Source: a virus (lineage: Duplodnaviria; Caudoviricetes). Taken from it: 64,000 bases of DNA. Positions 4,355 to 46,100 of this stretch are shown piece after piece; positions within the stretch are counted from its first letter, which is position 1; each line of letters opens with the position of its first letter. The position numbers were made by a program, and so were the translations under genes. The notes under the pieces are model-generated. The model was not told the origin of the DNA, did no database searches, and saw only the letters and a program-made list of their open reading frames with translations. The stretch lies in IMG/VR virus record IMGVR_UViG_3300013121_000018, positions 43,582 to 107,581 of that record; one strand, given 5' to 3'.

Positions 4355-4633
4355 GGATACAAAATGTAAGGTTTATAATATAAATTAATTTTTGCCCACA
4401 ATAAATCGGATGAATTGCTGGAAAATCCTGAAGAGGACAATCAGCAGCCAAGTTAAAGTTTAAATGACTTTAAAAGGTTCAACGACTAGGTATTGAAACT
4501 AATTTACTTAGAATATAATATACCCAAGAGCGTCCGACATTCTAATGGAATGATGATATAGTCTGAACTGCATGTATAACTTGAAAAGAAGATGCAGAAT
4601 TCAAGGATAAAGAACCTTGAAGATAACAAATTG
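4355..4633 (+). ncRNA. Group I intron (ORF-less, 279 nt) in dnaB
   Basis: Exon ends in U. IGS GCCCACA (4394-4400) pairs with exon UGUGGGU. Core elements AATTGCTGGAAA, AATCAGCAGCCAAG, GTTCAACGACTAG and GATATAGTCTGAAC are present; terminal G at 4633. Confidence 0.92.
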
Positions 4634-5551
4634 AAAAGCCGTTTTGTACGAAAAGTTTTTGTGAAGGATATTATCGATTATGCAAATCAATCTGGATTAG
4701 AAGTACACATTATTCTCAATTCTTTAGAAGAATCTGAAAATAAGGTTATTTCTACATTGGTTGCAAGTGACATTTATCGTAGATATGGTGTTCAGGTTAA
4801 TTATTATGACCTGAATAATTATTCTACAAAACCGATGTCATCTGAACAAATGAAAATGATTGCGGAATCGGAAGGTGCAATTGAAGACTACATGAAGTAT
4901 GTTGATATTGTACACATATCAAATCCTACTGGATTCTACAAGTATGTAATGGACTATTTGTATTCTACAGGTACATTTCTTTTGAAAGGACAACCTTTAA
5001 AGGAAAAGAAATATTACTCAACTGAATGGGATACTTATATTCCAGACAATCCAGCAAGAATTGTAGTTGCGATTTCAGATACAATGAATAAGTATCAACC
5101 GGAGAATGGTGACTTTTATCGTACATTAAGGACATTTTCAGAGTTTTACAGCCGAAATCTTTTAGGATTAAGATGTGGAGTCATCTCCATAATAATCCAA
5201 CAGCAGAAGGGCTCTAAAGAAGCCATAGATACTAATTTCAGAGGAGCAACTATCATTGAGAAGCTTAAACCAAGTATTGATGCTTTAGCAGACATAACCG
5301 GTAGTGCTCAAGATGCAACTTTGATTTTAGGATTATTTTCTCCTCTAAAGTTTGGAGAATGTAACTATAATGGTTATCCTGATTTAACAAAGCTTAACGG
5401 TAAATTTCGAGTACTTTCTGTATTAAAAACTAGAGAAGGTGAATTGGAACAAAACAATGAAATTCCTTTATTTTGTCAATTAGCAATTGATGAATTTGAA
5501 GAATTACCATTACCAAAAGAAAGTGAACTTTTAAAAGCTTACTACAAATGA
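4634..5551 (+). CDS. dnaB: DnaB-like replicative helicase, exon 2
   Basis: SLEES, ISD, IIIQQQ, P...L.D..GSAQDATLILGLFSP and LKTREG SF4-helicase motifs. Confidence 0.85.
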   Translation, partial: KSRFVRKVFVKDIIDYANQSGLEVHIILNSLEESENKVISTLVASDIYRRYGVQVNYYDLNNYSTKPMSSEQMKMIAESEGAIEDYMKYVDIVHISNPTGFYKYVMDYLYSTGTFLLKGQPLKEKKYYSTEWDTYIPDNPARIVVAISDTMNKYQPENGDFYRTLRTFSEFYSRNLLGLRCGVISIIIQQQKGSKEAIDTNFRGATIIEKLKPSIDALADITGSAQDATLILGLFSPLKFGECNYNGYPDLTKLNGKFRVLSVLKTREGELEQNNEIPLFCQLAIDEFEELPLPKESELLKAYYK

Positions 5552-9941: not shown

Positions 9942-10649
9942 ATGCTAAGTAAATTAAATATACATGAAAGTTGGAATGATATTTTCGTTCCTCTTTTAAG
10001 TAGTGATACAGGACAAGAATTGTTGCTACAGTTAGGTGATAAGTATCATCCTACAAAAGAAAGTATTTTCAGAGCATTCAGTATTCCTAAAGAGGACGTA
10101 TGTCTTATTATAATAGGTCAAGATGTTTATCCTGATAAAAGACTTGCAACTGGATTAGCTTTTGGAGTACCTCCAGGAAAAGACTCTGTTTCTTTGAAAA
10201 ATATAAGAACAGAAATTTATCGAGATTTCCACGATGATCCTACAAGTGATATTTTCCTTATGAAAGAGGACGAATTTAACTTCTTATTCGATAACAGTTT
10301 AGAATATTGGCAAGAACAAGGTGTTCTTTTATTAAATTCTGCATTAACTTGTGGAGGAACTCCTGGTGATCATTGGGATATATGGCAACCGTTCATGTCA
10401 TTATTAGTTACACAGCTTCCAGATGTACCTACAGTATTATTTGGAACTAAAGCAGCAACGTTGAAAGCTTTTATTAAAAATCCTATAATTGCTCCGCATC
10501 CAGCTTCAGATTCCTATGGAGGAGTCCGTAAGTTTTATGGATGTGGTGTATTTAGAGAAATACAAGAAAAAATACCAGACTTCAAATGGATAGAATACTT
10601 AAGTATTTCCTCACTTATGGAGGATACGACGGGGGATTTGCCTTTTTAG
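9942..10649 (+). CDS. ung: Uracil-DNA glycosylase (family 1)
   Basis: GQDVYP, ATGLAF, SLKNI, QGVLLLNSALT, H...W, HPA motifs. Confidence 0.92.
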   Translation: MLSKLNIHESWNDIFVPLLSSDTGQELLLQLGDKYHPTKESIFRAFSIPKEDVCLIIIGQDVYPDKRLATGLAFGVPPGKDSVSLKNIRTEIYRDFHDDPTSDIFLMKEDEFNFLFDNSLEYWQEQGVLLLNSALTCGGTPGDHWDIWQPFMSLLVTQLPDVPTVLFGTKAATLKAFIKNPIIAPHPASDSYGGVRKFYGCGVFREIQEKIPDFKWIEYLSISSLMEDTTGDLPF

Positions 10650-11164
10650 GTAAATCTGTTAAGAATATTAACGATGCGGATTTGATTATTTTTACTGGTG
10701 GAGAAGATATTTCACCAGAATTATATAATCAAAAAGCAAATACACATACAAGAGGTGTTAATATCAAACGTGATAGGCATGAAGTTGCTATATTCAACCT
10801 CTATAAAGATATTCCTAAACTTGGTGTCTGTAGAGGACACCAACTAATTTCTGTGTTAGAGGGTGCTTCTTTGATTCAGCACGTTGATGGTCATCATACT
10901 AACCATAATATGAAAACGTTTGATGATCATACTATTGGAGTTACATCATGTCATCATCAAATGGTTATCTTCGACAAAGACATGGAAGAAGGTAAAGACT
11001 ACTATCACTTAGGATGGTCTTCACCAGCAAAAGCTACTATGTATGTTGGAGAAAAAGGTATAGATATATATAGGGACGGTGTTAAACTTGCTAACAGATA
11101 CTTTGAAGAATCCGAAATGGCTTTTTTTCCAAAATCAAATAGCTTGACTGTACAATTTCACCCT
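10586..11164 (+). CDS. Class I glutamine amidotransferase (PuuD/peptidase C26-like), exon 1; join(10586..11164,12201..12338), 238 aa
   Basis: TGGEDI, GVCRGHQ, SCHHQ, QFHP; the catalytic Glu is supplied by exon 2. Confidence 0.88.
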
Positions 11165-11335
11165 AAACATTTGGGGCTTGCATAAGTGATTGTGCATGAA
11201 ACATCGCTTAAATTCGGTGAACTCCTTCAATATTTTGGAGAATACCGAGCCAAGCTATTCTTAGGTTAATAGAGAATAGAAGGTGTAACGACTACAGAGG
11301 TGAGCCTAACAATAATCCTCTGCACGAAAAAGCGA

Positions 11336-11983
11336 TTACTTACTTTTATCAAAAACATCTTTATACTGCCACTTATATCCACCACAGGTAACATCTCTAC
11401 CATTACAAACGTGTCTTATATTTTGTCTCCAAACATTATTTTTAATAGCAGCGTTTTGTAATGAGTAATATTCTTCAACAATATTTTCTTCAAAATCTAA
11501 TTTATATACTGGTCGGCCAAGTTTTCTTTTTAAAGATTCTGGTCTATTTTTTCCTAATAAGCCTTGTCTTATTTTTTCACAAGTTTCTTTTCTTACTTTT
11601 CTTTTAAAGGTAATAGGATGCTTCATGTTGGTGGAAATATTAAAACCTTTTTTTACTGAATTATATTTATTTATGTAATAAAGTTCTCGTTCCCATAAAA
11701 ATTCATATGAGTTTTCATTAGGAATAAGTTCTAAAATATCAAATATAAAATTATTGACTCCGTATTTATTATACGCTCGTTGCAATTTTATATTATAATG
11801 CGCATTTTTTTCAAGTTTTAATAAATGGTTTTTCCATCTTTTATGAAAATTAGATTTGTTTCCTTTTGTGGAACCTATATAAGCTTTGTTATTTTTAACA
11901 CAAAGTATTATATAAATACCTGTAGATTTAATGTTTACCACAGATTCTGCAGTAGTAATGATGTTTGTATAAATTTTTACCAT
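11336..11983 (-). CDS. GIY-YIG homing endonuclease (intron-encoded, NUMOD1-like C-terminus)
   Basis: GIYII..NNKAYIGS, RW..H, ERE.YYI, GFN, YYSLQNAA..GGYKWQY. Confidence 0.92.
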   Translation of the reverse strand: MVKIYTNIITTAESVVNIKSTGIYIILCVKNNKAYIGSTKGNKSNFHKRWKNHLLKLEKNAHYNIKLQRAYNKYGVNNFIFDILELIPNENSYEFLWERELYYINKYNSVKKGFNISTNMKHPITFKRKVRKETCEKIRQGLLGKNRPESLKRKLGRPVYKLDFEENIVEEYYSLQNAAIKNNVWRQNIRHVCNGRDVTCGGYKWQYKDVFDKSK

Positions 11984-11996
11984 ACTTGTTTTTTTA

Positions 11997-12024
11997 CAAA
12001 GATAACTCTGTTTAAAAGTACAAA
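11997..12024 (-). promoter_or_regulatory. Bacteroidota-type sigma70 promoter for the antisense HEG
   Basis: Minus strand TATCTTTG (12004-11997) matches TAnnTTTG, 13 nt before the ATG. A TTTG lies 16 nt upstream, a slightly short spacer. Confidence 0.65.
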
Positions 12025-12200
12025 ATAGTTTTATGTAAAAAAATTAACAATTTTTGGTAATAACTAAGTTATAATGATAAAACAATTCTATATGAATGTA
12101 AATTCAATCATATGGAATGTAAGTAAATGATATAGTCTGAACTTACAGGATGATAAACTGTAAGAAGTATAGGATAAAGAGCCTATACGATAACATAATG

Positions 12201-12338
12201 GAATGGATGGACAATATGCTTGGACAAAAATATGTTAAAGAATTAGTTTTCAAGTTAGTTTCTAATAAACTTGAAGAACACATAATTCAATCAAAATTGA
12301 ACATTGAATATGCACAAGAGCTCGATGCCCGTTTTTAA
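12201..12338 (+). CDS. Class I glutamine amidotransferase, exon 2
   Basis: EWMDNMLGQKYVKELV... completes QFHPEWM. Confidence 0.85.
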   Translation, partial: EWMDNMLGQKYVKELVFKLVSNKLEEHIIQSKLNIEYAQELDARF

Positions 12339-13008
12339 TATTGTTAACTACAGTATAGGTAAATACTGTGAGGCTACAGATTACTTAGATCCACATCTAA
12401 CATTATTGGAAGAAAATGGAAAAGATTTACATTGTTTATTTAAAGCATGTAGATGTAAGGACTTCTTCAACGAAGTTTTTAATAAAATATATACAGGTAA
12501 CGACAGTACAATTTATGACTTTTCCACGAACAATATTGATGTATCTAAGGTTAAAGATTCTGAATACTTTTATCTCCTTATGGTATCAAGAGAAGCCAAT
12601 GATGCAAAAATATTTGATGCTGAAAACATTCAAAATTTCTTAGATTTATTTAATCCGAAATCTCAAGTAGTAAAAACAAACATGGAAAAAGGTATTGTCA
12701 TTCGGTTTCATAGAAACTGGACAGACAGACCTTATCTGTTGTCAATGTTTTTAAATTTATGTAGAATAGGTTCCTTGTATAACAACGAAGGTTGGGAATC
12801 GTTTAAACAATTGTTGAGCAGCAAAGGCTTGTTTTGGAAACAAGGTTATGCAAGTTCACCTTGTTTAAATCAAGTAGCAAACAGTTTAAGAGTAATTGAA
12901 GATTATCTGAATGGAATTGTTCATGAACAAGCTTATTCAGATTATTCAAATACAAATGATTTACACAACCGTAGTGGAGCAGTAAGCTTCACTGCTAAAT
13001 TAAAGTAA
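12304..13008 (+). CDS. Hypothetical protein within the amidoligase cluster
   Basis: 234-aa ORF with a CRCKDFF motif. Confidence 0.75.
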   Translation: MNMHKSSMPVFNIVNYSIGKYCEATDYLDPHLTLLEENGKDLHCLFKACRCKDFFNEVFNKIYTGNDSTIYDFSTNNIDVSKVKDSEYFYLLMVSREANDAKIFDAENIQNFLDLFNPKSQVVKTNMEKGIVIRFHRNWTDRPYLLSMFLNLCRIGSLYNNEGWESFKQLLSSKGLFWKQGYASSPCLNQVANSLRVIEDYLNGIVHEQAYSDYSNTNDLHNRSGAVSFTAKLK

Positions 13009-13010
13009 TA

Positions 13011-13682
13011 ATGAAACAAATAGGTCTTCTTTTGAAGGTAGATACCGGAAACGTCACAATTAATGACAGGTATATGCATTGGGTATCACAATTTGGAAAC
13101 GTGCAATTCATCAACCCTCTTGATGAAAATGTATATGATTTAGATTTACTAATACTTCCTGGTGGAAGTGATGTGGATCCAGCAAGGTATGGTGAAAAAC
13201 CAAAACCATATTGTCAGAAACCCAATATCTTTGACGAATGGTTCGATAAGTTTATGTTGCCGAAATATATTGCAAAACAAATTCCTATTTTTGGAATTTG
13301 TAGAGGTTTTCAAACTTTGGCTGTACACTTTGGTGTTAAACTAACACAACATTTATATGCTCCGTATAGTGACCCAAGAGGAAAACTTGTAGAGAATTTG
13401 GAATTTAATCTTGAGGTACAACCGTCTGATAGGGCATATAACATTGCTAAAATGGTTAAAAAAGGAAGTCCTGTTAAAGTAAACAGCTTACACCATCAAG
13501 GATTTTATCAATGGGATTGTGAAAAAAATCCTATGATACAAATTTTAGCAACTGCAAAAGAAGCATTGAATGTTGAAGTATTTAAAGTAAAGGATATGCC
13601 AATTTGTGCTGTACAATACCATCCAGAAGAGATTGCATGTAACTATGCAGAAGCTCTTGTAAAAAGTTTATTAACAAAGTAA
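13011..13682 (+). CDS. Class I glutamine amidotransferase / gamma-glutamyl hydrolase (peptidase C26)
   Basis: PGGSDV, GICRGFQ, VNSLHHQ, VQYHPE. Confidence 0.92.
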   Translation: MKQIGLLLKVDTGNVTINDRYMHWVSQFGNVQFINPLDENVYDLDLLILPGGSDVDPARYGEKPKPYCQKPNIFDEWFDKFMLPKYIAKQIPIFGICRGFQTLAVHFGVKLTQHLYAPYSDPRGKLVENLEFNLEVQPSDRAYNIAKMVKKGSPVKVNSLHHQGFYQWDCEKNPMIQILATAKEALNVEVFKVKDMPICAVQYHPEEIACNYAEALVKSLLTK

Positions 13683-13690
13683 TAACTTAA

Positions 13691-14545
13691 ATGACAAATA
13701 AAATTCAAAATATAACGTTGGGTTCAGACCCAGAGTATTTTGTAAAACACATTCCTACTAACACCATCGTTAGTGGGATTGGTTTTGTAGGTGGTACAAA
13801 AAATGAACCGCTTATTTTAGATAATGAAACTGGTATCACTCGTACAGAGGATTGTACCTTAGCAGAATTTCAGTTTCCACCAGTTACTTCTAAAGAGGAT
13901 TGGTTGTATATGTTTAAGAAACTTGTTCAAAAAGGTAATGAACACCTTGGACAATATGATATGTGTCTAGTAACAGGTTCCTCACATATTTATGACGATG
14001 CTGAACTTCTTCATCCAATGGCAAGAACATTTGGATGCTCTCCAAGTACTAATGCTTGGACAAAAGAAACACAGTATTCTTGTGGGCCAGAAGAAGCTGG
14101 TAATTTGCGTTCAGCAGGTGCACATATTCATATTGGAACTACTTCTGACATTTCTGAAGATGATGCATATAATCTTATTCGTGTTTTGGATGTATTTCTG
14201 GGAGTACCTTCTGTTTTGATTGATACAGATACTCAAAGGAGGAAACTTTACGGAAAAGCCGGAGAATGCCGTTTTAGGGTTATCAAAGGTGTTATCGTAA
14301 TGGAATATCGCACTTTAGGTGGCAATATGCTGGAATCGGAAGAGTTGATTGGTTGGATTTATGACCAAACTATGAAAGCAATTGAGTATTACAACACCGA
14401 GGGTGTAGAAAAAGTGAATGCTTTCCGTGAAGAGATTATTGATTGTATTGATAATGTTAAAGAAAATCTTGCAAAAGATTTGATGTCAATCTTTAATCTA
14501 ACAATTCCTTATTTGGAGTATGTTAAAATCCATAACCATGCATAA
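13691..14545 (+). CDS. phiEco32-like COOH-NH2 ligase type 2
   Basis: LGSDPE, GGTK.EP, ED..LAEF, FGC.P, RSAGAHIHIG, RR.LYGKAG..R, EYRTL. Confidence 0.9.
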   Translation: MTNKIQNITLGSDPEYFVKHIPTNTIVSGIGFVGGTKNEPLILDNETGITRTEDCTLAEFQFPPVTSKEDWLYMFKKLVQKGNEHLGQYDMCLVTGSSHIYDDAELLHPMARTFGCSPSTNAWTKETQYSCGPEEAGNLRSAGAHIHIGTTSDISEDDAYNLIRVLDVFLGVPSVLIDTDTQRRKLYGKAGECRFRVIKGVIVMEYRTLGGNMLESEELIGWIYDQTMKAIEYYNTEGVEKVNAFREEIIDCIDNVKENLAKDLMSIFNLTIPYLEYVKIHNHA

Positions 14546-14885
14546 AATAGCAGTATACGGAAGTTTAAGACAAGGTGAATATAATTTTGAGCGAATGTCT
14601 TATATAGGGGATATTCAATACGAAACAACAACAACCATTCAAGGATGGGACTTGTATAGTCTTGGTATGTATCCTGCAATAAAAAAGGGTACTGGTACAA
14701 TTGTTGTAGATATTTTAAACGTTGGTGATGAAGTATTGGATTTTATTCGTGGAATGGAATTTGGTGCAGGGTATCATGAAGAAACAGTCAATGTTGATGG
14801 ACAAGATTGTTTCATTTATGTATACAATTATGAACTATCTAGAAACCAGGTACTGTCTGGTGACTGGAAAAAACAAAACGATTAA
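14538..14885 (+). CDS. Gamma-glutamylcyclotransferase (AIG2/GGACT-like)
   Basis: IAVYGSLRQG, LY.LG.YPA, E...Y motifs. Confidence 0.9.
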   Translation: MHKIAVYGSLRQGEYNFERMSYIGDIQYETTTTIQGWDLYSLGMYPAIKKGTGTIVVDILNVGDEVLDFIRGMEFGAGYHEETVNVDGQDCFIYVYNYELSRNQVLSGDWKKQND

Positions 14886-14886
14886 T

Positions 14887-16341
14887 ATGTGTAATATAAG
14901 TGGAGCATTAAAACTACCGAATAAGAAATACCACAATAGTGATAAATTGAAACTTCTAGCACTATATGGTGCTGAAAGAGGTAAGGATTCTTTTGGTATT
15001 TGGTATGATGATAAAGTACTTTATCATGTAAGGAGTACTTATGCAGTAACAGATGGCAACAGTTGTAGTGTATTTTTGAAATATCCGTTTCCAGAAAATA
15101 TTCAGTCTAATATTGTACTTATGCACAATAGGCAGGCTACTGTAGGTGTTGTTAACGAAAATGCAGCACACCCATATATCATTGATAATGAAATGGTGGG
15201 AATGAAGAATGGTACTATTCACAATTATGAATATCTTGCCGATAAATATAAAATTAGTGAAAAAGAGTATGAGACTGATAGTGAACTCATACTGAAAATT
15301 ATTCACAGGCATGGTTTGGAAGTCTTAAAAGAATATGTAGGTGGATGTGCAATTGCTTGGTTCAACTTGTCAGAACCCGACACTCTGTATCTCTGGAAAG
15401 GTGCTTCAATGGAATACAATAGGTATGAAGAAGAACGTCCTCTATTCTACACATTCGATACAAACGGTACATTGTATTTCAACTCTTTGGAACCACCTCT
15501 AAAGTATGTTAATAATACAAGGACACCTATCCATAGTTTAAAAGAAAACACGGTATTTGCCTTTAAAAACGGTAAAATATCGGTTGTTGCTGAATTTGAT
15601 CGTTCAAAAATGTCTCAGTCAAAACCATACAACAATACTGTATGGAACGGTTATTATGAAAAAGCAACCAATTCTTCAAAAGTAAAACATCTGCCGTCAC
15701 CTAAACTTATTGAACCTTGTCCTCAAATAAGGGCTGCTGGAAACATTTACTATTACAAAGGTAAATACTGGAAAAACGGTCATATTGTTGAAGGTGTGCT
15801 TAATATCGATACTGATAGTGGAGAAATTTTATACGATAATAGTGGGACAAACTTGTTTTTTTACAAAGGTTGGTGGGTAAAGGATGCATTTACTTATAAT
15901 AGGTTGAATTTTCCAGGAAATGAAGATGCTCCTGATATTTTTGACATGCACCATGATGCTGTCACTGAATGTATTGACGGTTTCTTTTACAGAAATGGAA
16001 GTAAGTTGAATTATACATTCAAACCTAAGTTTGGTTATAACAATTACACCTTTTTAAACGGTTCCTTAACAGCAATTGCTGCAAATTTTGGGCCAGAGAA
16101 AACTGATAACACTAGAGATGCTCTTCTTGATGCTGTTAATTACTATGTGTTTGGTAACTATACACAATGTTATTATAGCAGCAGAGAAGTTGCAGAAGCA
16201 GGTATTAAAGAGATTGATCCGACTATTAAGTTGAAGTGGACTACTGTTAATCAGATTCTGGAAGCATTGAAAAATTCAAAAAAAGCTAAAAACGAAGAAG
16301 AAATTGAAGAACAGCTTCTTCTTCAAAATTGGACAAGTTAA
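14887..16341 (+). CDS. Class II (Ntn) glutamine amidotransferase with C-terminal extension
   Basis: True start MCNISG (Cys2 nucleophile); RG.DSFG, HNRQATVG, AHPY, NGTI.N, TDSE, ERPL. Confidence 0.88.
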   Translation: MCNISGALKLPNKKYHNSDKLKLLALYGAERGKDSFGIWYDDKVLYHVRSTYAVTDGNSCSVFLKYPFPENIQSNIVLMHNRQATVGVVNENAAHPYIIDNEMVGMKNGTIHNYEYLADKYKISEKEYETDSELILKIIHRHGLEVLKEYVGGCAIAWFNLSEPDTLYLWKGASMEYNRYEEERPLFYTFDTNGTLYFNSLEPPLKYVNNTRTPIHSLKENTVFAFKNGKISVVAEFDRSKMSQSKPYNNTVWNGYYEKATNSSKVKHLPSPKLIEPCPQIRAAGNIYYYKGKYWKNGHIVEGVLNIDTDSGEILYDNSGTNLFFYKGWWVKDAFTYNRLNFPGNEDAPDIFDMHHDAVTECIDGFFYRNGSKLNYTFKPKFGYNNYTFLNGSLTAIAANFGPEKTDNTRDALLDAVNYYVFGNYTQCYYSSREVAEAGIKEIDPTIKLKWTTVNQILEALKNSKKAKNEEEIEEQLLLQNWTS

Positions 16342-16343
16342 AA

Positions 16344-17939
16344 ATGAGTACAAAAAAAAGTAAAAATAAGTTTGCTGCTCCTACATTAGCTGCTGTAAGT
16401 GAACCCAGTGTTGTAACATACACTGGGGATACTTATCCCAAAAGTGCCTGTAGGCGTATTGATAATGACTATTATCTTATCGGTGATAAAAATATCAAAG
16501 ATTCTGGTCAAGTATTTCTTATCAATGATGTCTGGTATCGTCTGTCAACTAATAAGATTACATGGGACTATCGTAAAGAAGAATATGTAATTATTAGTAG
16601 TAGCACTTTGATTTACGGCTTGGTGGATGTCACAAAAGACAAAGAACCGGTTATGGGATATTTTACACCAGATGACCTGAAAGATATTATGGTCTATGAT
16701 TACGGTGCGTCTGAATTTATGGCTATGGATGAAAATATGGCATTAAAACTCCCAAATGCGGTACGATGTGTTTCAGATGGTGCTATAGTATTTTCCAAAC
16801 TTAAAAACGTAAATTCTCTTAGTAGATTTGAAAAACATGCTAAAAGAAATTATCCCTCGTTTGATTTGAATAATTATGGATTTGCAAATAATCCTGGCGT
16901 TTCTCTTGTAAAAGAAAGGAATGCTAAATATATTAAAAGTAAAGAATTTACAGTAAATCCTACTATTGCAGAAATTGCAAAATTTCTTAAAGGCTATACA
17001 TTTGGAGCAGAATTTGAAACTGCATGTGGTACATTACCAACAAAAGAACTTCTTAAAACAGGATTAATTCCTGTTAAAGATGGTAGTATTTCTGGACATG
17101 AGTATGTTACTCTGGTTCATCAAGGTGAACTAGGATTACAGCTTTTGATGGATGCAGCAAATGCATTAAGTACATGGACAACTCCAGATCAGTATTGTTC
17201 CTTACATATCCATATCGGAAATGTTCCTAGAACAAAAGAGTTTATCATCGCTATGTATATGTTGTCATACATGTTACAGCATGAATTACATGAAATCGTA
17301 GCTCCATACAAAAAAGATGTCGGTTATCTTGCATCTAAGAATCATGGCGCTAAAGACCACTGTAAATACTTGCAATCACTGAATCTATTTGGAAATCGCA
17401 TTTATGATGTTCCTAAAGAACAAAAACAAAGAGAAATCGATGTTGTCTTCAAAAATGTATTCGCATGGTTGAATGATGGACAGGGAGAAAATGTTAGAAA
17501 TAATTTCGGAACAGGAGTACATGTTAGACAAGACCGTCCTAAATGGGAATGGCAGTCTAGGTATTACTGGATGAATTTTTGCAATTTAGTATTTTCACCA
17601 CATCATACAGTTGAGAACAGGTTGCATAGTGGAACAGTGAATCCAACTAAGACGTTGAATTGGTTATTGATTACTGTGGCAATGATAGATTTTGCCATTA
17701 ATAATCAAGAAGAGATTATTCGTGGCAAAACGAAGTATGCACTTGAGGATATTGTAAACAGATACTATAGAGTATCTGATAGTGGCAACATTATTGCCGA
17801 TTATTTATTGGCATATATTCGTGACAGGAAAAACAATTTCTTTAATTTGTCTATGATGGGAGATATGTATGGCAATGAATTTGTAAATAAAAATACTTCC
17901 TTTGAACCTTGGGAAGTTTTGATTAAAAGACTCAAGTAA
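16344..17939 (+). CDS. Putative amidoligase (COOH-NH2 ligase fold)
   Basis: FGAEFET, DGSI.G.EYVT, CSLHIHIG, RY..MN, TVE.RLHSGT. Confidence 0.85.
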   Translation: MSTKKSKNKFAAPTLAAVSEPSVVTYTGDTYPKSACRRIDNDYYLIGDKNIKDSGQVFLINDVWYRLSTNKITWDYRKEEYVIISSSTLIYGLVDVTKDKEPVMGYFTPDDLKDIMVYDYGASEFMAMDENMALKLPNAVRCVSDGAIVFSKLKNVNSLSRFEKHAKRNYPSFDLNNYGFANNPGVSLVKERNAKYIKSKEFTVNPTIAEIAKFLKGYTFGAEFETACGTLPTKELLKTGLIPVKDGSISGHEYVTLVHQGELGLQLLMDAANALSTWTTPDQYCSLHIHIGNVPRTKEFIIAMYMLSYMLQHELHEIVAPYKKDVGYLASKNHGAKDHCKYLQSLNLFGNRIYDVPKEQKQREIDVVFKNVFAWLNDGQGENVRNNFGTGVHVRQDRPKWEWQSRYYWMNFCNLVFSPHHTVENRLHSGTVNPTKTLNWLLITVAMIDFAINNQEEIIRGKTKYALEDIVNRYYRVSDSGNIIADYLLAYIRDRKNNFFNLSMMGDMYGNEFVNKNTSFEPWEVLIKRLK

Positions 17940-18531: not shown

Positions 18532-19140
18532 ATGCCAAGAGCCGCAAGTAGTGGTGCAAAAATACACTCTTTCACGCCAAACAGAACCTCAAAATACCTA
18601 CTGGTCGCATTAAAAGATTGGGGAACAGCGTTTAACCAAGAATTTGAAACAGTTATAGAAAACATTTTAAAATTTGGAATACATGATGCTAAATACTATG
18701 AGGAAATAACAAATAATATGTTTATTCTTTTCAAGGTAAATTCAAACTTGCAAAAATTTCTAGACTTTGTCAAAGAACATCCTGCTTATGTTCACGATTA
18801 CAAATGCGGAAATAATCATATGTTAGTAGTATCTTTTCCTAATAAACATAGTCATTTAGTACCATTGTTTTTAGAAGGAAAATACTCAGAACTTTATTCT
18901 ACAGAAGATGTTGATAGATTGTTTCCTAAAAAAGTATTGATTGGAAATAAAGAAGAAATATATTCTTATTATAGAATATTAACTAAAGATAGTACATATA
19001 TTCCGATATTTCAGTCAATAATAAAAAAAGAATTTAATGTTGGTGATAAATTTGTTCCAAAAGCTAATGAAATTGTTGAACTCGATTTTCCTCCAAAATT
19101 GGAAGAAGAAATTTTTAATTATGGGTTTAATGATTCATAG
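18532..19140 (+). CDS. Conserved phage hypothetical protein
   Basis: FLEGKYS and ELDFPP..EEE motifs. Confidence 0.75.
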   Translation: MPRAASSGAKIHSFTPNRTSKYLLVALKDWGTAFNQEFETVIENILKFGIHDAKYYEEITNNMFILFKVNSNLQKFLDFVKEHPAYVHDYKCGNNHMLVVSFPNKHSHLVPLFLEGKYSELYSTEDVDRLFPKKVLIGNKEEIYSYYRILTKDSTYIPIFQSIIKKEFNVGDKFVPKANEIVELDFPPKLEEEIFNYGFNDS

Positions 19141-19534
19141 TATTGCTCTTGAGAATAAAATAAATATTATACCTCAAGATTCGGAGTGGAAACTGCTTAC
19201 AAAGGCAGTTTCCCTCGAATCTAAGGGAGAACCATTCATAGGACAACTATTCGTAGCACAAACAATTATAAACCGTAAAAACGGCTGTAATTGCCCTGTA
19301 AGAGAAGTACTTACTAAAAAGTTTCATAGTAATCCTAATTATATCAAATGGATTGAAGCAGAACCATTGGATACTGCTTTAATGAGAAAATTAAGAATAC
19401 TAGAAAATGTAAAGATACATAGCTTCTGGTATTTTTATAATCTAAAAACTGCTACAGATACAAAATTCCTAAGAGCTATGAAAAAGAAAAAACATAAACT
19501 TCAAATCTATAACCATATATTTGTTGAAAAATGA
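19121..19534 (+). CDS. SleB-like cell-wall hydrolase (Hydrolase_2)
   Basis: LL.KAV.LESKGEP..GQ..VAQ.IINR, YFYN, I.NHIF. Confidence 0.8.
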   Translation: MGLMIHSIALENKINIIPQDSEWKLLTKAVSLESKGEPFIGQLFVAQTIINRKNGCNCPVREVLTKKFHSNPNYIKWIEAEPLDTALMRKLRILENVKIHSFWYFYNLKTATDTKFLRAMKKKKHKLQIYNHIFVEK

Positions 19535-24411: not shown

Positions 24412-24924
24412 ATGACAAAAATAAAAATAGGATTAGACCTTGACGGCTGTATTGTCGATTTTACTGGTGGATTCTTTAAATGGTTTGATGAACCATTGCC
24501 TAAAATTACACAGTGGGAAGTTGATTTTATAAATGAGAATTTTGAACATATTGCTAACGATAAAGATTTTTGGCTTAGTTTAGATCCACTTATAGATCCA
24601 AAAGAACTGGAAGGAATTCCAGTTTACTGTTACATTACTGCTAGACCTGTAGATCCACATATAAGCTTTAAATGGCTTGAAATGCATGGATTTCCACTTG
24701 CACCAGTATTCGGTGTAGGTTCTGATGGTGCAAAGCATGACACTAAAACAGAAATTATTAGAGAACTTGGTATCAATTACTTTGTTGATGATAAGCGTCA
24801 ACACTTTGATGAAATTAATTCATGTACAGATTGTACATGTTTTCTAATGAATACACCTTGGACTGAATGGGAAACTGTTCAGCCTAAAATACACACGTTT
24901 CAAGAATTAAAAGAAGTACTTTAA
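24412..24924 (+). CDS. HAD-family 5'(3')-deoxyribonucleotidase
   Basis: DLDGCIVD, ITAR, K, FVDD motifs. Confidence 0.85.
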   Translation: MTKIKIGLDLDGCIVDFTGGFFKWFDEPLPKITQWEVDFINENFEHIANDKDFWLSLDPLIDPKELEGIPVYCYITARPVDPHISFKWLEMHGFPLAPVFGVGSDGAKHDTKTEIIRELGINYFVDDKRQHFDEINSCTDCTCFLMNTPWTEWETVQPKIHTFQELKEVL

Positions 24925-25250
24925 TGGAACTTGGTGATAGATATAATGAAGGAAAACCGATGATGTCTTTAGTACCGCCAATTGCAATGACAGAAGTTGC
25001 TAAGGTGTTAACATATGGTGCTCAGAAATATGCAAAGAACAATTGGTTGAAGGGAAGACCTCACATGGAGTTTATTGACAGCATGGAAAGACATGTTGCT
25101 GAATGGAAGAAATGTATTGATATTGACCCTGAAAGTGGGTTACATCATATTTCACATGCAGCATGTAATCTTATGATGCTGTTAGAATTAATAGCCTTAC
25201 GTCCAGATTTGGATGATAGGCCATTAGAGTTTTACAATGAAAAAAAGTAA
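24924..25250 (+). CDS. dATP/dGTP diphosphohydrolase (DUF5664-like)
   Basis: GK..MSLVP, VLTYGA.KY..NNW.KG, RH, DPESGL.H..HAACN. Confidence 0.88.
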   Translation: MELGDRYNEGKPMMSLVPPIAMTEVAKVLTYGAQKYAKNNWLKGRPHMEFIDSMERHVAEWKKCIDIDPESGLHHISHAACNLMMLLELIALRPDLDDRPLEFYNEKK

Positions 25251-25712: not shown

Positions 25713-25950
25713 ATCTTTAAAAGAAGCATTGGAAAATACCACAGTTGAAGATTTAACAAGTGAATGGTATTCATTATCAGATTCTGAAATGAAACGACCT
25801 AAGATTGAAATTGCAGGTCGTTTATTTTCTTCAATTAAAGAAGCGGCACAACAAAGTGGTTTTGGTATTGGACAACTAAGAGGTTGGCTTAGAAGTAAAA
25901 ACCCAACTAAAAGAATTCAACATAAAATAAGAAGAGTCTATGAAGACTAA
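25696..25950 (+). CDS. Small NUMOD1/HTH-like DNA-binding protein
   Basis: IEIAGRLFSSIKEAAQQSG...LRGWL. Confidence 0.6.
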   Translation: MSFRHKSLKEALENTTVEDLTSEWYSLSDSEMKRPKIEIAGRLFSSIKEAAQQSGFGIGQLRGWLRSKNPTKRIQHKIRRVYED

Positions 25951-26761
25951 ATTCAAAAAAAGATTTGCAAGAATCAGAAGCAAGCATCCTTCACATGCTC
26001 CACTTCGGGCAGCCATTCCTATAGATACCAAAGCTGTTGTAAGATTTGGTAGTACTACAGAAATGCCATCAGAATTCATTGAAATTAATCATAAAGATGT
26101 TGCTAGAATATCAGGTAATAAACTGAAGATGAAACAAGCTTTTGATGAAGCTGGTGCTCAAACAGCCGTATGGATTAATCCAAGGTTATGTACAGGCACA
26201 TCAGGTACAACTGTAGCAAATGAATGTGCTAAATTAGGATTTCCAATTGTGGCAAAACATATATTTGGTTCTCAAGGTAAAGGCAACACTCTAATTAAAT
26301 CAGAAGAAGAACTTTCAGAATATTTGCAGGGTAAAACAGTAAACAATTATATCTTTGAAAAGTTTTATAACTACAGCAGAGAATATCGTTTACATGTTGA
26401 TGCAGAAGGTTGTTTCTATGCTTGTAGAAAGATGCTTAAATCAGATACTCCAGCAGAAGAAAGGTGGCACAGACATTCTGATACATCTGTATGGATTGTA
26501 GAAGAAAACGAAATGTTTCAAAGACCTAATACATGGGATGATATTGTAGAAGATTGTGTTGCTATTCTTAATGAAATCGGTGCTGATTTTCTTGCATTTG
26601 ATGTTAAAGTCCAAAGTGATGTAGACTCTAAAGGTTATCCTCGTGACAGACAAGAATATATCATCATTGAAGCAAATTCAGCTCCTTCATTGGGGGATAA
26701 AGGAATTGAAATCTACAAGAAAAGAATACCGCAAATGATTAAAAGAAAGACCGCCGTATGA
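25940..26761 (+). CDS. ATP-grasp ligase (RimK-like, phiEco32-type)
   Basis: VRFGS, NKL.MK, FPIVAK..GSQGKG, EYRLHV, DF.AFDV, IIEANSAPSL. Confidence 0.88.
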   Translation: MKTKFKKRFARIRSKHPSHAPLRAAIPIDTKAVVRFGSTTEMPSEFIEINHKDVARISGNKLKMKQAFDEAGAQTAVWINPRLCTGTSGTTVANECAKLGFPIVAKHIFGSQGKGNTLIKSEEELSEYLQGKTVNNYIFEKFYNYSREYRLHVDAEGCFYACRKMLKSDTPAEERWHRHSDTSVWIVEENEMFQRPNTWDDIVEDCVAILNEIGADFLAFDVKVQSDVDSKGYPRDRQEYIIIEANSAPSLGDKGIEIYKKRIPQMIKRKTAV

Positions 26762-43100: not shown

Positions 43101-46100
43101 CATGTTCGTTACCACGTACTTGAAGAATAGAATATGTTTGACCAATGTGATTCTCAGAAGCTATTTTAGGTGCATTTATTACTTTTCCATCTTTAAACAA
43201 TGGATGTAATTCATTACCATCAAATAGTCTACCTTCAGAACCTACATAAGCAATTGATGCTGTTGGTTGATACTTTGCAACACTTGCTTGTGGCTTCTTA
43301 CCACGAGAAGTATTAAATTGACCATAACCTTTAAACTCAATAGTAGTTTCAACTTTACCGGTTTCAAATACTTGTTGTCTAAAGTTATTAAGAATATCAA
43401 GTTGTTCCTGTGCTTCAGCAGGACTGATAGGAACTTCTCTACTCCAAGTTTTATTGGAATTAGTATACTTTACTTTATCAGATACTTCATAATGACTTTC
43501 ATTAGTCAATCCACCAATGAGAACATCACCATCAACAGTTCTAACTTCCATATACTTAGTTTGATATGGACGTTTTTCATCATCGATTCTAGAAGCTTCA
43601 TCTGGATGTGGTGCAAGTTGTACATAAATTTTTGTTCCAGGTAAAAGATTATCTGGATTGATATTATATGTATAATCTACTTTATCAGTACCATCAGTAA
43701 TTTCATCTGCAGTCCTTGTATAAGGAATATTTAAGAACATCAACCTTGATGCATCCTGAAACGGATTCTTAGAAGAATCATCATCTGCAGATTGTTCTGT
43801 AATAGACTTCTCTGTAAATTCATCAGTTGCATCTGGATTAATTACTTTTGCAATTTCAGCTTGCTTTGCAGCAGCTTCTTGCATTTGTTGTTCTACAGGG
43901 ATAGGTTCCCCAAAAACATCATCGAGATTCGTTACTTCTCCGGATTCTTTTGCCTGTTTCTTTAGACCGGCCATGAAATCACTTTCATCAAATCCAAACA
44001 ATTCATTAACAGCTACAGGTTTTTCAATTTCCTGTTCTGCAACTTCAGCTTTACTTTGTACTTGAGTTTGCTTTACAGCTTGTTGTGCATTCTGCTTTAC
44101 AGGCTGTGTAACTTCTTCAGGAAGGTCTGCTTCTTGAATAGCATTTTCAATTTCTTCTTTGTACTTAGAATCTTTCTTAGGATTCTTATTTTCAATTTCA
44201 TTGACCTTTTCGGCAAACTCTGTTTGTTTAGAAAGCTTTTGTTGAAATTCATCAGATGTGATTTCATCATACTCATTCTTTAAGTCTTCAATACTTTGTG
44301 CTAAAGAATCTGTTTTATCTTTGATGTCTTTAGCATCACGATATTCTTTTGTATTTCTTAAATAATTTGCTGTCTTGTTATAAGTAGCCGCAGCTTTTCC
44401 TTCATTTGGATTATTTCCAGAAAGAATATCTTCTGCATTATAAGAAAGAATCTTTTCTCTAGTAAGAGTATTATTTGTACCAGCTTCTTGAATAGTTTCT
44501 GATGCACCTGACCTAGTTGTATACTTTCCTGCTTTTATACCAGATTCAATTCTACTAGACAACTTAGAAGTTGCACCATTTAATTTATCTTGGTATTCGT
44601 TTAAAAGCTTTTCTTGTAAAAGAATATTTGCCGCAGTAGTATAAACTTGAGAAGAATTTTGATAATTACTTGCTTCAATAAATTGACTTTCAAGTTCTTT
44701 AATTGTACTTACAGCTTCTGCTGCTTTCTGCTTTGCAAATTGCGGATCAAGACCTTGAGCTTCATATTGTTCATCTGTAAAGCTTCCAAGCTTCTGATAA
44801 ACATCTAATAGGTTTTCGGTTGTACCAGATTCAAATGCTCTTTGTGCTTGGTATATTAACAGATTATCTGTGGCCTTTTGAAAAGCTTCTTTATTACCAG
44901 TAGCAGCTACAGCATTAACATTTGCTAAAAGATTTTGTTGTTCTTCTGCAGATGTAAATGCATCAGTCAATCCTTTAAAACCAGAAACATTTGCAATTGT
45001 ATTTTGTTGTGCAATTACTTTCTGTTGTTCATCGTACCTTTGATTATTCAGGAAATTTGATGAAACAAGTTTTCCTTCATCTGTACGATGTGCAGGAATG
45101 CTTTTTGAAAAATGTGTCAATGCTGTTTGACCAGCACCACCAACAAAACCAAGCAATGCATTTTCAGCACCTTGTTTTGTAAGTACATCTGACAAAGCTT
45201 CAGACCATCCATACTTTTTACCAGCAGCTTCAGCCCTTGCTTTATTTTCAGCAATCATGTTTACAGTCTCCTCACCCATTTCTTGAAAACCTTCCTTACC
45301 CATTTCACCAAGGGCACGTTTACCCGTAGATTTTGTAAGAAGTTGTCTTGTAAGAGTTGGAGGACGAACAAATGCTTTAGCACTTGTAATATTCAATAGA
45401 ATATTAATTCTATTCAAATCTATAGATGTAGATGCTGCAGTTGCAGCAGCCATCTTAGCAGCTTCTGGAGAAAGTCCTTCTTGCAACTTTTCATTATAAA
45501 CATCGTTATAAACATTTGTTGCAATACCAATAGATTCTGCTTGATTAAGTGCTGCAGAGTTTGCCAACCATTTTGCACCTTCAACTGCTTTAGTAGTATT
45601 GTTAAGTGAATTAAGCCATTTAACACTATTTGCAGCCTTTCCAAGCATACCTATTCCAGCACCAGTCAAATAACCAGTAGCAACAAATGATGTTGCTGAT
45701 TCAACTAAGGAAGAACCATTATCCCACCACCAAGCAGGATCACCTATGTCTAAAGGTTTTCCTGGTTCCGCCCTATAAATTGGAGCAGATTCTTTGATGT
45801 CAGTCTTAATAGACTCCATAGCATTTGTCAACCAGTTTCCTACTTCATCATCTTGATTCATGTAATCCTCAAAATCAAGAGCACTGGCAACATTTCCTAT
45901 AATACTAAACGGAATTTGAAACAATCTTTTTGAAGCTTGGATACCCATATCCAATCCTGTCTGATTAGAGTTGCGTATCTTTTGCTGCAAATCAGCGGCA
46001 GACCGTCCCAGTCCTGTATCATAGGTGTTGACTTCTTCTCCACCCGGAGGCGTATAAAACCTATTACTTTGCATCAGGTAATCAGAAGGCACTACTGCTT

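Follow-up and report, generated by a model that had tools for sequence, protein, structure and literature searches.

Phages of the phiEco32 and LUZ24 groups carry an enzyme set that was predicted from phage genomes by Iyer, Abhiman, Burroughs and Aravind in 2009, as is stated in the citing passages of later papers (PMC5498523, PMC10580990). In those passages (Duhaime et al. 2017, PMC5498523; PMC10580990), which refer to Iyer et al. and Hardies et al. (2013), the set is called a 'peptidoglycan modification cassette' and is proposed to block superinfection, and the cassette is also listed in LUZ24-like genomes (PMC3890496). Further copies are annotated in Cellulophaga phage phi14:2, in cr108_1 and in Leptolyngbya phage Lbo-JY46, with the crAss-like copies lying between the primase and uracil-DNA glycosylase (UDG) genes. 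The cassette is thus already known as a kind, including in crAss-like phages, from both the literature and GenBank annotation. A full-text literature search found no paper with a demonstrated cassette product, in agreement with the first-pass annotation of the DNA analysed here. Here, we present an analysis of a copy of this cassette in a window of 64,000 nucleotides, that is, the whole stretch from position 43,582 to 107,581 of the IMG/VR virus record IMGVR_UViG_3300013121_000018. The best explanation as a whole, to which we assign a probability of roughly 0.6, is that the window holds a complete and probably functional phiEco32/LUZ24-type amide-ligase cassette whose enzymes would build and then trim gamma-glutamyl linkages.

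The locus has in common with the phiEco32/LUZ24/RIO-1-type cassette the PF14395 COOH-NH2 (carboxylate-amine) ligase, the Amidoligase_2 family, the N-terminal nucleophile (Ntn) glutamine amidotransferase (GATase), the ATP-grasp family, peptidase family C26 and the GGCT/GGACT families (GGACT, gamma-glutamylamine cyclotransferase), as well as co-directional tight packing and a placement among early replication-related genes. It differs from that type in having two C26 copies separated by a Pfam-less gene, an ATP-grasp gene displaced by 8 kb and a group I intron in one gene, and its amidoligase has an extra N-terminal region of ~220 residues compared with the LUZ24-type amidoligases of 307-385 amino acids (aa). 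The COOH-NH2 ligase matches 304 phage records, including phiEco32-like, Pseudomonas LUZ24-like, Vibrio, Aeromonas and Proteus phages, Cellulophaga phage phi14:2 and others. The attribution to the phiEco32 type in the first-pass annotation is borne out by this ligase family, by the gene set in phi14:2 and cr108_1 and by the later papers that cite Iyer et al. 2009.

Among crAss-like phages, phi14:2 (g037-g041) and cr108_1 (gp028-gp034), both of the Steigviridae, have the same core order of ligase, Ntn GATase and amidoligase and the same neighbours, namely primase, UDG, RusA/endonuclease and exonuclease genes, but are only 28-30% identical to the copy described here. In both of them the UDG gene comes after the cassette, in this phage before it; furthermore, a C26 gene is not annotated in phi14:2, nor a GGCT in cr108_1, whereas both kinds are present here (the latter as GGACT), and no cassette intron is annotated in either record.

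Ligases and amide-cleaving enzymes

The open reading frame (ORF) map, combined with profile scans against Pfam, PHROGs and NCBIfam, resolves window positions 10586-17939 into a co-directional, tightly packed enzyme block on the plus strand, which is the strand of all features below unless stated otherwise. The gene series read from the sequence earlier, namely class-I GATase, unknown protein, class-I GATase, COOH-NH2 ligase, GGACT, Ntn class-II GATase and amidoligase, was recovered with each domain located where it had been claimed, and the ATP-grasp ligase placed at 25940 is matched there by Pfam and by PHROG 2599. Catalytic residues, the loss of which had been named as a ground for doubt, are retained on comparison in both C26 enzymes, the Ntn GATase, the COOH-NH2 ligase and the amidoligase; from the alignments, all testable catalytic residues appear to be kept across the cassette enzymes.

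The phiEco32-type COOH-NH2 ligase (13691..14545, 284 aa; PHROG 3815, E 1.2e-53) matches Pfam PF14395 at E 4e-12, with 46.3 bits against a cut-off of 25, and keeps 24/24 invariant columns of its family in a 40-sequence alignment, among them D13, E15, D54, E59, H145, R183, R194, E205 and R207. The amidoligase, which is glutamine synthetase (GS)-like, spans 16344..17939 (531 aa from the ATG) and is matched by PHROG 2443 (E 5.5e-32), while its match to Pfam Amidoligase_2, PF12224, stays under the cut-off (19.8 bits against 22, E 8e-4). Its best annotated matches are in Leptolyngbya phage Lbo-JY46, in phi14:2 (g041, 'amidoligase enzyme', E 1e-54 by tblastn) and in cr108_1 (3e-39). The invariant residues E228, E230, D251, E258, H293, E429 and R431 form an ExE...E...H...ExR pattern that, as we read it, resembles the metal- and phosphate-binding residues of glutamine synthetase, and the catalytic domain is preceded by the N-terminal region of ~220 aa, which is variable. 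Between the COOH-NH2 ligase and amidoligase families, hhalign gave only a marginal match, at an E-[YF]-R strand common to both (E 0.004, probability 9%). The most likely amidoligase start is the ATG at 16344, the listed ORF starting at a TTG at 16329, and this ATG follows the Ntn GATase stop at 16341. The third ligase, of the ATP-grasp family (25940..26761, 273 aa; Pfam ATP-grasp E 1.9e-6, RimK E 2e-4, PHROG 2599 E 2.8e-23), lies 8 kb downstream of the block, whereas its family sits inside the cassette in other phages.

Motifs of their families are also kept in the enzymes that may remove gamma-glutamyl groups. C26 no. 2, a class-I GATase/peptidase C26 protein (13011..13682, 223 aa; Pfam PF07722, E 2.8e-28), has its Cys in GICRGFQ and its HPE in QYHPEE, and both align with those of its best solved relatives, PuuD 6vtv (E 1.4e-7) and 7d4r; PuuD is a gamma-glutamyl-GABA (gamma-aminobutyric acid) hydrolase. 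The GGACT-like protein, an AIG2-fold gamma-glutamylamine cyclotransferase relative (14520..14885, 121 aa; Pfam PF06094, E 5.7e-15), keeps the YGSLR motif of its relatives in the PDB, YtfP 1xhs (E 6e-7) and PH0828 1v30 (E 2.6e-6), and the Glu of its GMEFG motif aligns with a Glu of PH0828 that, following human GGACT, is presumably catalytic.

The Ntn class-II GATase (14887..16341, 484 aa; Pfam GATase_6/7, E 5e-15) starts with Met-Cys at 14887, by which the listed ORF start of 14722 is corrected from the translation. The same Met-Cys start is found in 53/53 distinct cassette Ntn GATase ORFs that passed a filter in which the start was placed at a Met-Cys. A 37-sequence alignment gives C2, R31, G32, H80, R82, N108, G109 and D131 as invariant, which in GlmS numbering presumably correspond to the catalytic Cys and to the Arg, Asn-Gly and Asp of glutamine binding. 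In the AlphaFold2 (AF2) model, residues 1-245 have a pLDDT >90; Foldseek matched the GlmS glutaminase domain (E 7e-13), and VIA-align returned Z 20-23 across the PurF, GlmS, EgtC and AsnB glutaminase domains (PurF Z 23.0 with a root mean square deviation (rmsd) of 2.5 over 215 residues; GlmS Z 22.3; EgtC Z 21). The C-terminal half (residues ~272-484, window 15700-16341) is beta-rich, with a pLDDT of ~90 for residues 275-400, and consists of a domain in which aromatic-x-x-Gly motifs recur and, after it, a helical tail modelled with low confidence; it is poorly conserved in the family. Fold searches with the model gave no fold for this C-terminal domain, the match lists being filled by the Ntn domain, and the Atlas gave no usable match.

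A predicted group I intron in the first GATase gene

The first gene of the block, coding for another class-I GATase/peptidase C26 protein (no. 1, here GATase 1), is interrupted at its most conserved codons. Exon 1 (10586..11164, 193 aa; Pfam PF07722 E 2e-17, PHROG 7218 E 4.6e-28) contains the catalytic Cys in GVCRGHQ and ends in QFHP, and the unspliced ORF terminates as QFHPKHLGLA followed by a stop, so that it lacks the Glu that completes the catalytic His-Pro-Glu motif. The insertion point is between the Pro and the Glu of this motif, and in silico excision of 11165-12200 (1036 nt) joins QFHP to EWMDN, the beginning of exon 2 (12201..12338, 45 aa and a stop), to give a 238-aa protein; exon 2, which overlaps the start of the next gene, was defined by its reading frame and by alignment to the intronless homologue in the related phage contig L005, where the uninterrupted GATase gene reads TVQFHPEWQDG.

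Several features mark the excised segment as a probable group I intron. A relaxed search with Rfam RF00028 matched a group I core at 11155-11342 (28.6 bits, E 6.5e-5; the gathering score of 50 was not reached), and the match stops at 11342, where the ORF of an antisense GIY-YIG homing endonuclease begins (11336..11983, minus strand, 215 aa; Pfam GIY-YIG E 1.2e-11, I-HmuI NUMOD-like E 8.6e-5). A P1 helix, CCCU/GGGG, places the splice-site U-G pair after 11164, and the terminal G is at 12200. The 3' core of the intron (12121-12204) has counterparts of 75-85% identity in 44 phage records, and many of these adjoin HNH/homing endonuclease genes and lie in polymerase or tape-measure genes. The intron in the GATase catalytic motif that was proposed in the first-pass annotation is thus upheld by the P1 helix with its U-G pair, the terminal G, the group I core match and the intronless QFHPEW homologue. 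The further claim that the intron itself signals a functional gene is weaker, an intron alone being no proof; better evidence is that the Cys-His-Glu triad, whole in this gene only once the intron is removed, would be restored by splicing and is intact in two relatives.

In its group I core, 5' U-G pair, terminal G, endonuclease ORF in a peripheral loop and insertion at a conserved catalytic motif, the element resembles phage group I introns with a GIY-YIG endonuclease, such as T4 td/I-TevI. Unlike in those introns, the interrupted gene codes here for an accessory enzyme and not for a core DNA-metabolism function, and the endonuclease is encoded on the strand opposite to the intron.

Related contigs suggest that this site and this cassette have been interrupted more than once. 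In L004 an intron occupies the same site between the Pro and Glu codons of the GATase gene, and the insertion (L004:8834-9808) carries a different antisense ORF of 164 aa without a Pfam match. In L005 the COOH-NH2 ligase gene is in three pieces (L005:11888-15248), split by a 288-aa antisense ORF and a LAGLIDADG ORF, which suggests two more intervening elements within the cassette. The window itself contains a second group I intron at 4364-4583 (plus strand), which is ORF-less, scores 67.7 bits, above the Rfam gathering score, and lies directly upstream of the ORF 4592-5551.

Co-occurrence of the cassette genes in other phages

The conservation of the gene set was assessed in IMG/VR contigs by a scan seeded only on the COOH-NH2 ligase, which found relatives in 416 contigs; the best 80 loci were analysed with profiles built from the window's own proteins, and co-occurrence was counted in the 45 loci where the sequence extends for 7 kb or more to either side of the ligase. 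Amidoligase and Ntn GATase genes were each present in 45/45 loci, ATP-grasp genes in 43/45, C26 GATase genes in 39/45, GGACT genes in 23/45 and genes of the family of P0002, the Pfam-less protein between the two C26 copies, in 7/45. Among neighbouring pairs less than 300 bp apart, amidoligase and Ntn GATase, in either order, were adjacent in 74/77, C26 and ligase in 45/65 and ATP-grasp and GGACT in 17/28. The ATP-grasp profile recovered cassette-linked ATP-grasp genes in 69/89 loci. The cassette is, accordingly, a four-enzyme core with a near-obligate amidoligase/Ntn GATase pair and optional gamma-glutamyl-removing modules, with class-I C26 GATases, GGACT and the Pfam-less protein as frequent add-ons. 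This strong linkage, above all the 45/45 for amidoligase and Ntn GATase, excludes the lack of co-occurrence elsewhere that had been named at the outset as a possible weakness. Amidoligase-GATase fusions were sought among longer homologues and none was found, the only longer forms being amidoligases of 933-941 aa with an internal insert. Some loci have further conserved genes of 230-330 aa without a Pfam family (L044:7400-9361, L053:9019-9978 and 10795-11490), which are placed between ATP-grasp and C26 or between ligase and amidoligase.

The constancy of the set bears on whether these genes could act as auxiliary genes of nitrogen metabolism that shift glutamine, glutamate or glutathione-type pools to the benefit of phage replication. 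An eLife 2024 paper reads the gene set in this way in a Planctomycetes-associated phage, with growth effects in the presence of nitrate and ammonium (PMC10945688), but that reading is drawn from growth data, without an enzyme assay or product. A dedicated pathway is a better fit to a set in which three different ligases and as many as four enzymes that cleave gamma-glutamyl bonds keep a fixed adjacency and include phage-specific families (PF14395). One narrowly drawn pattern, searched in 185,579 species genomes, gave a single match, on a contig of a metagenome-assembled genome, to which we attach little weight. On balance we hold a role in nitrogen supply to be very unlikely.

The cassette-associated protein P0002

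Between the two C26 genes lies the gene for P0002 (12325..13008, 227 aa, most likely starting at the ATG at 12325), which has no family in Pfam, PHROG or NCBIfam. An exhaustive HMMER search collected 86 cluster representatives of relatives at E <= 1e-3, mostly of 210-250 aa, with C44, D46, S140, R147, H214 and G218 as family invariants and no glutamate among them. No Pfam family was common to the 50 family members that were scanned, apart from which a single weak match occurred in one member. Relatives were found in 20/89 loci, eight times directly adjoining the ATP-grasp gene; in individual contigs, the gene adjoins the COOH-NH2 ligase and GGACT genes (L006), precedes two Ntn GATase genes by ~5 kb (L008) or, in one case, has an RNA ligase and a kinase gene as neighbours (L007).

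The AF2 model of P0002 is confident (pLDDT 93.8), and a Foldseek search of it against the PDB gave nothing at E <= 1e-3, nor did the ESM Atlas return a match. In an exhaustive VIA-align comparison, 12/15 top rows were Dop, PafA, GshF, glutamine synthetases, YbdK-like proteins and glutamate-cysteine ligase (GCL), at Z 5.5-3.9 and an rmsd of 4.1-4.8 over 117-173 residues, values that lie under the level that the tool regards as meaningful, and hhalign of the P0002 family against the COOH-NH2 ligase and the amidoligase families was not significant. An amino-acid-binding protein was considered from single-sequence matches (4eq9, 4c0r, E ~0.01) and rejected, these matches having vanished with the family profile. 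As a lead only, P0002 may be a cassette-associated protein derived from the GS/GCL/PafA ligase fold without its usual glutamates.

The same fold matches touch on the possibility of protein tagging, in which a GS/GCL-fold ligase would join a glutamate-ended peptide or an amino acid to lysines in the manner of PafA and Pup, and GGACT and the C26 and Ntn enzymes would reverse or mature the tag. PafA and Dop have the same ligase fold, and GGACT enzymes cleave epsilon-(gamma-glutamyl)-lysine; moreover, the ATP-grasp enzyme is RimK-like and the weak fold matches of P0002 are headed by Dop and PafA. The likeness of P0002 to Dop/PafA, however, reaches only Z 5.5, below the stated noise level of the tool, the tightly packed cluster of the window contains no small tag-like ORF, and no conserved candidate tag was seen across the loci, where no systematic search for one was made. 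Tagging is therefore an explanation that we consider improbable.

Host phage and genomic context

The genome is a 107,581-bp record, estimated as 97% complete. In tblastn comparisons of cr108_1 proteins with the whole genome, the terminase large subunit (TerL, 1.3e-8), portal (4.4e-13) and major capsid protein (MCP, 1.1e-12) were matched at 21-26% identity, and the primase is nearest to those of Flavobacterium FpV4-like phages and IAS virus, so that a distant crAss-like phage would be a fair description of the carrier. The earlier label 'crAss-like' consequently applies in the broad sense, with TerL, portal and MCP all matching cr108_1, but not as close kinship, given the 21-26% identity. The cassette is within a replication-gene block: a UDG gene (9942-10649) lies upstream of it, the primase gene further upstream and the RusA gene downstream. 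Two genes after RusA, in the early-gene block, an ORF at 19037-19534 (plus strand) weakly matches Hydrolase_2, a family of cell-wall hydrolases (E 0.004), and the same weak match is found at the corresponding place in L004.

Also downstream, the ATP-grasp gene is flanked by the genes of a MazZ-like nucleoside triphosphate (NTP) diphosphohydrolase and a dUTPase. The former, just upstream of the ATP-grasp and dUTPase genes, is at 24924-25250 (plus strand) and codes for 108 aa with the PF18909 dATP/dGTP diphosphohydrolase N-terminal domain (E 3.7e-31).

This setting invites the view that the ligases and amidotransferases decorate a base or a nucleotide precursor as a hypermodification against restriction. 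Besides the position of the cassette in a replication and nucleotide block, with ATP-grasp between the MazZ-like and dUTPase genes, amidoligase and amidotransferase genes to which no role is ascribed have been noted beside thymidine-hypermodification genes in viral contigs (Lee et al., PMC8989533). Against this, no ThyA/ThyX-type dUMP hydroxymethylase, PurZ-type adenylosuccinate synthetase or TGT/DpdA gene was found in the 97%-complete genome, and the absence of a PurZ-type enzyme means that a Z-base pathway is not indicated; a Tet/JBP search of the genome was also empty, but its control matched in no genome and the result carries little weight. In the cassette proteins themselves, Pfam, PHROG and NCBIfam recognised no DNA-binding or base-flipping domain. 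Of the explanations weighed here, hypermodification is the one to which we give the least credence.

A different target would be the cell envelope, if stem-peptide-type linkages (gamma-D-Glu, amidated Glu or diaminopimelic acid (DAP)) were altered on cytoplasmic precursors, or wall peptides recycled, to block superinfection or to time lysis. Wall stem peptides do contain a gamma-glutamyl bond and amidated carboxylates, and their amidation is carried out by class-I (MurT/GatD) and class-II (AsnB1/LtsA) enzymes. The hosts whose names were tallied from the 304 carrier records are Gram-negative throughout, and remodelling of the wall is the published reading, as given in the passages that cite Iyer et al. 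and Hardies et al. (PMC5498523, PMC10580990). The cassette proteins, however, are predicted to be soluble and cytoplasmic: no 19-residue Kyte-Doolittle mean reaches 1.6 in any of the eight, so that 0/8 have a signal peptide or membrane segment, which still leaves room for action on cytoplasmic precursors. In addition, none of the genes accompanying the cassette is of the Mur-ligase, transpeptidase or flippase type, and in distant lineages it is placed among primase, UDG, RusA and nucleotide-metabolism genes. We consider envelope remodelling unlikely, though likelier than the other alternatives.

Proposed mechanism

It is reasonable to propose from the enzyme families that the cassette makes and removes gamma-glutamyl/amide linkages. 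In the build-and-trim mechanism that we favour, three ATP-dependent carboxylate-amine ligases would, during infection and in the cytoplasm, form amide bonds on an amine or peptide acceptor of low molecular weight, with at least one of these bonds being of the gamma-glutamyl type. The Ntn GATase, almost always adjacent to the amidoligase gene, would act as a unit with that enzyme, either by feeding glutamine-derived ammonia to an acyl-phosphate made by the amidoligase or by cleaving a gamma-glutamyl amide hydrolytically in the manner of EgtC. The PuuD-like C26 enzymes and GGACT would then strip gamma-glutamyl groups following the logic of Puu/Pau and BtrJ/BtrG, for which GATase 1 would need splicing of its group I intron to regain the catalytic Glu.

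The parallels with the Puu, Egt and Btr pathways are drawn from general knowledge of these pathways and serve as analogies. PuuA/PuuD and PauA/SpuA act on polyamines, EgtA/EgtC in ergothioneine synthesis and BtrJ/BtrG in butirosin synthesis, and in each pair a gamma-glutamyl-adding ligase of the GS/GCL or ATP-grasp fold is combined with a C26, Ntn or GGCT remover, as would be the case here; PuuD is the best solved relative of C26 no. 2, and EgtC ranks high in the fold matches to the Ntn domain. Unlike these pathways, the phage genes come without an oxidase, dehydrogenase, methyltransferase or carrier protein, the sequence similarity is at the superfamily level only, and no substrate is common to them by evidence.

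A number of points weigh against the build-and-trim mechanism. The gamma-glutamyl idea is suggested by family resemblance, and GS/GCL-fold and ATP-grasp ligases also join other carboxylates. The literature search gave no product, substrate or phenotype for any cassette member, and with no amidoligase-GATase fusion at hand the partnership proposed for these two enzymes is argued from adjacency alone. The ATP-grasp gene is 8 kb from the cassette in this phage, the splicing of GATase 1 is a prediction, and the mechanism assigns no part to the C-terminal domain of the Ntn GATase or to the first 220 aa of the amidoligase.

Two more specific ideas are speculative, and we rate either as having a small chance of being right. 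The cassette could be a counter-measure against a host amine, for example a polyamine, that would be gamma-glutamylated and then trimmed; and, separately, P0002, in which a Cys, an Asp and a His are invariant, could be a novel enzyme derived from the GS/GCL fold that adds a chemical step to the cassette of this lineage. If either were true, a long-unexplained phage pathway would become a defined host-takeover or anti-defence mechanism.

Significance

On the question of what the cassette makes, this copy adds little to the line of work that started with the 2009 prediction. It does confirm the four-enzyme core, the near-obligate amidoligase/Ntn GATase pair and the optional gamma-glutamyl-removing modules, and it flags, in P0002, a cassette-linked protein family without annotation. 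Two modest additions may be new, namely this unannotated, cassette-associated family and the intron in an accessory gene, the latter indicating that homing elements in this phage lineage invade accessory genes, too, at their most conserved codons. The ligase gene occurs in 304 records of sequenced phages and in 416 contigs of IMG/VR, and among its carriers are Pseudomonas and E. coli phages of relevance to therapy as well as crAss-like phages of the gut.

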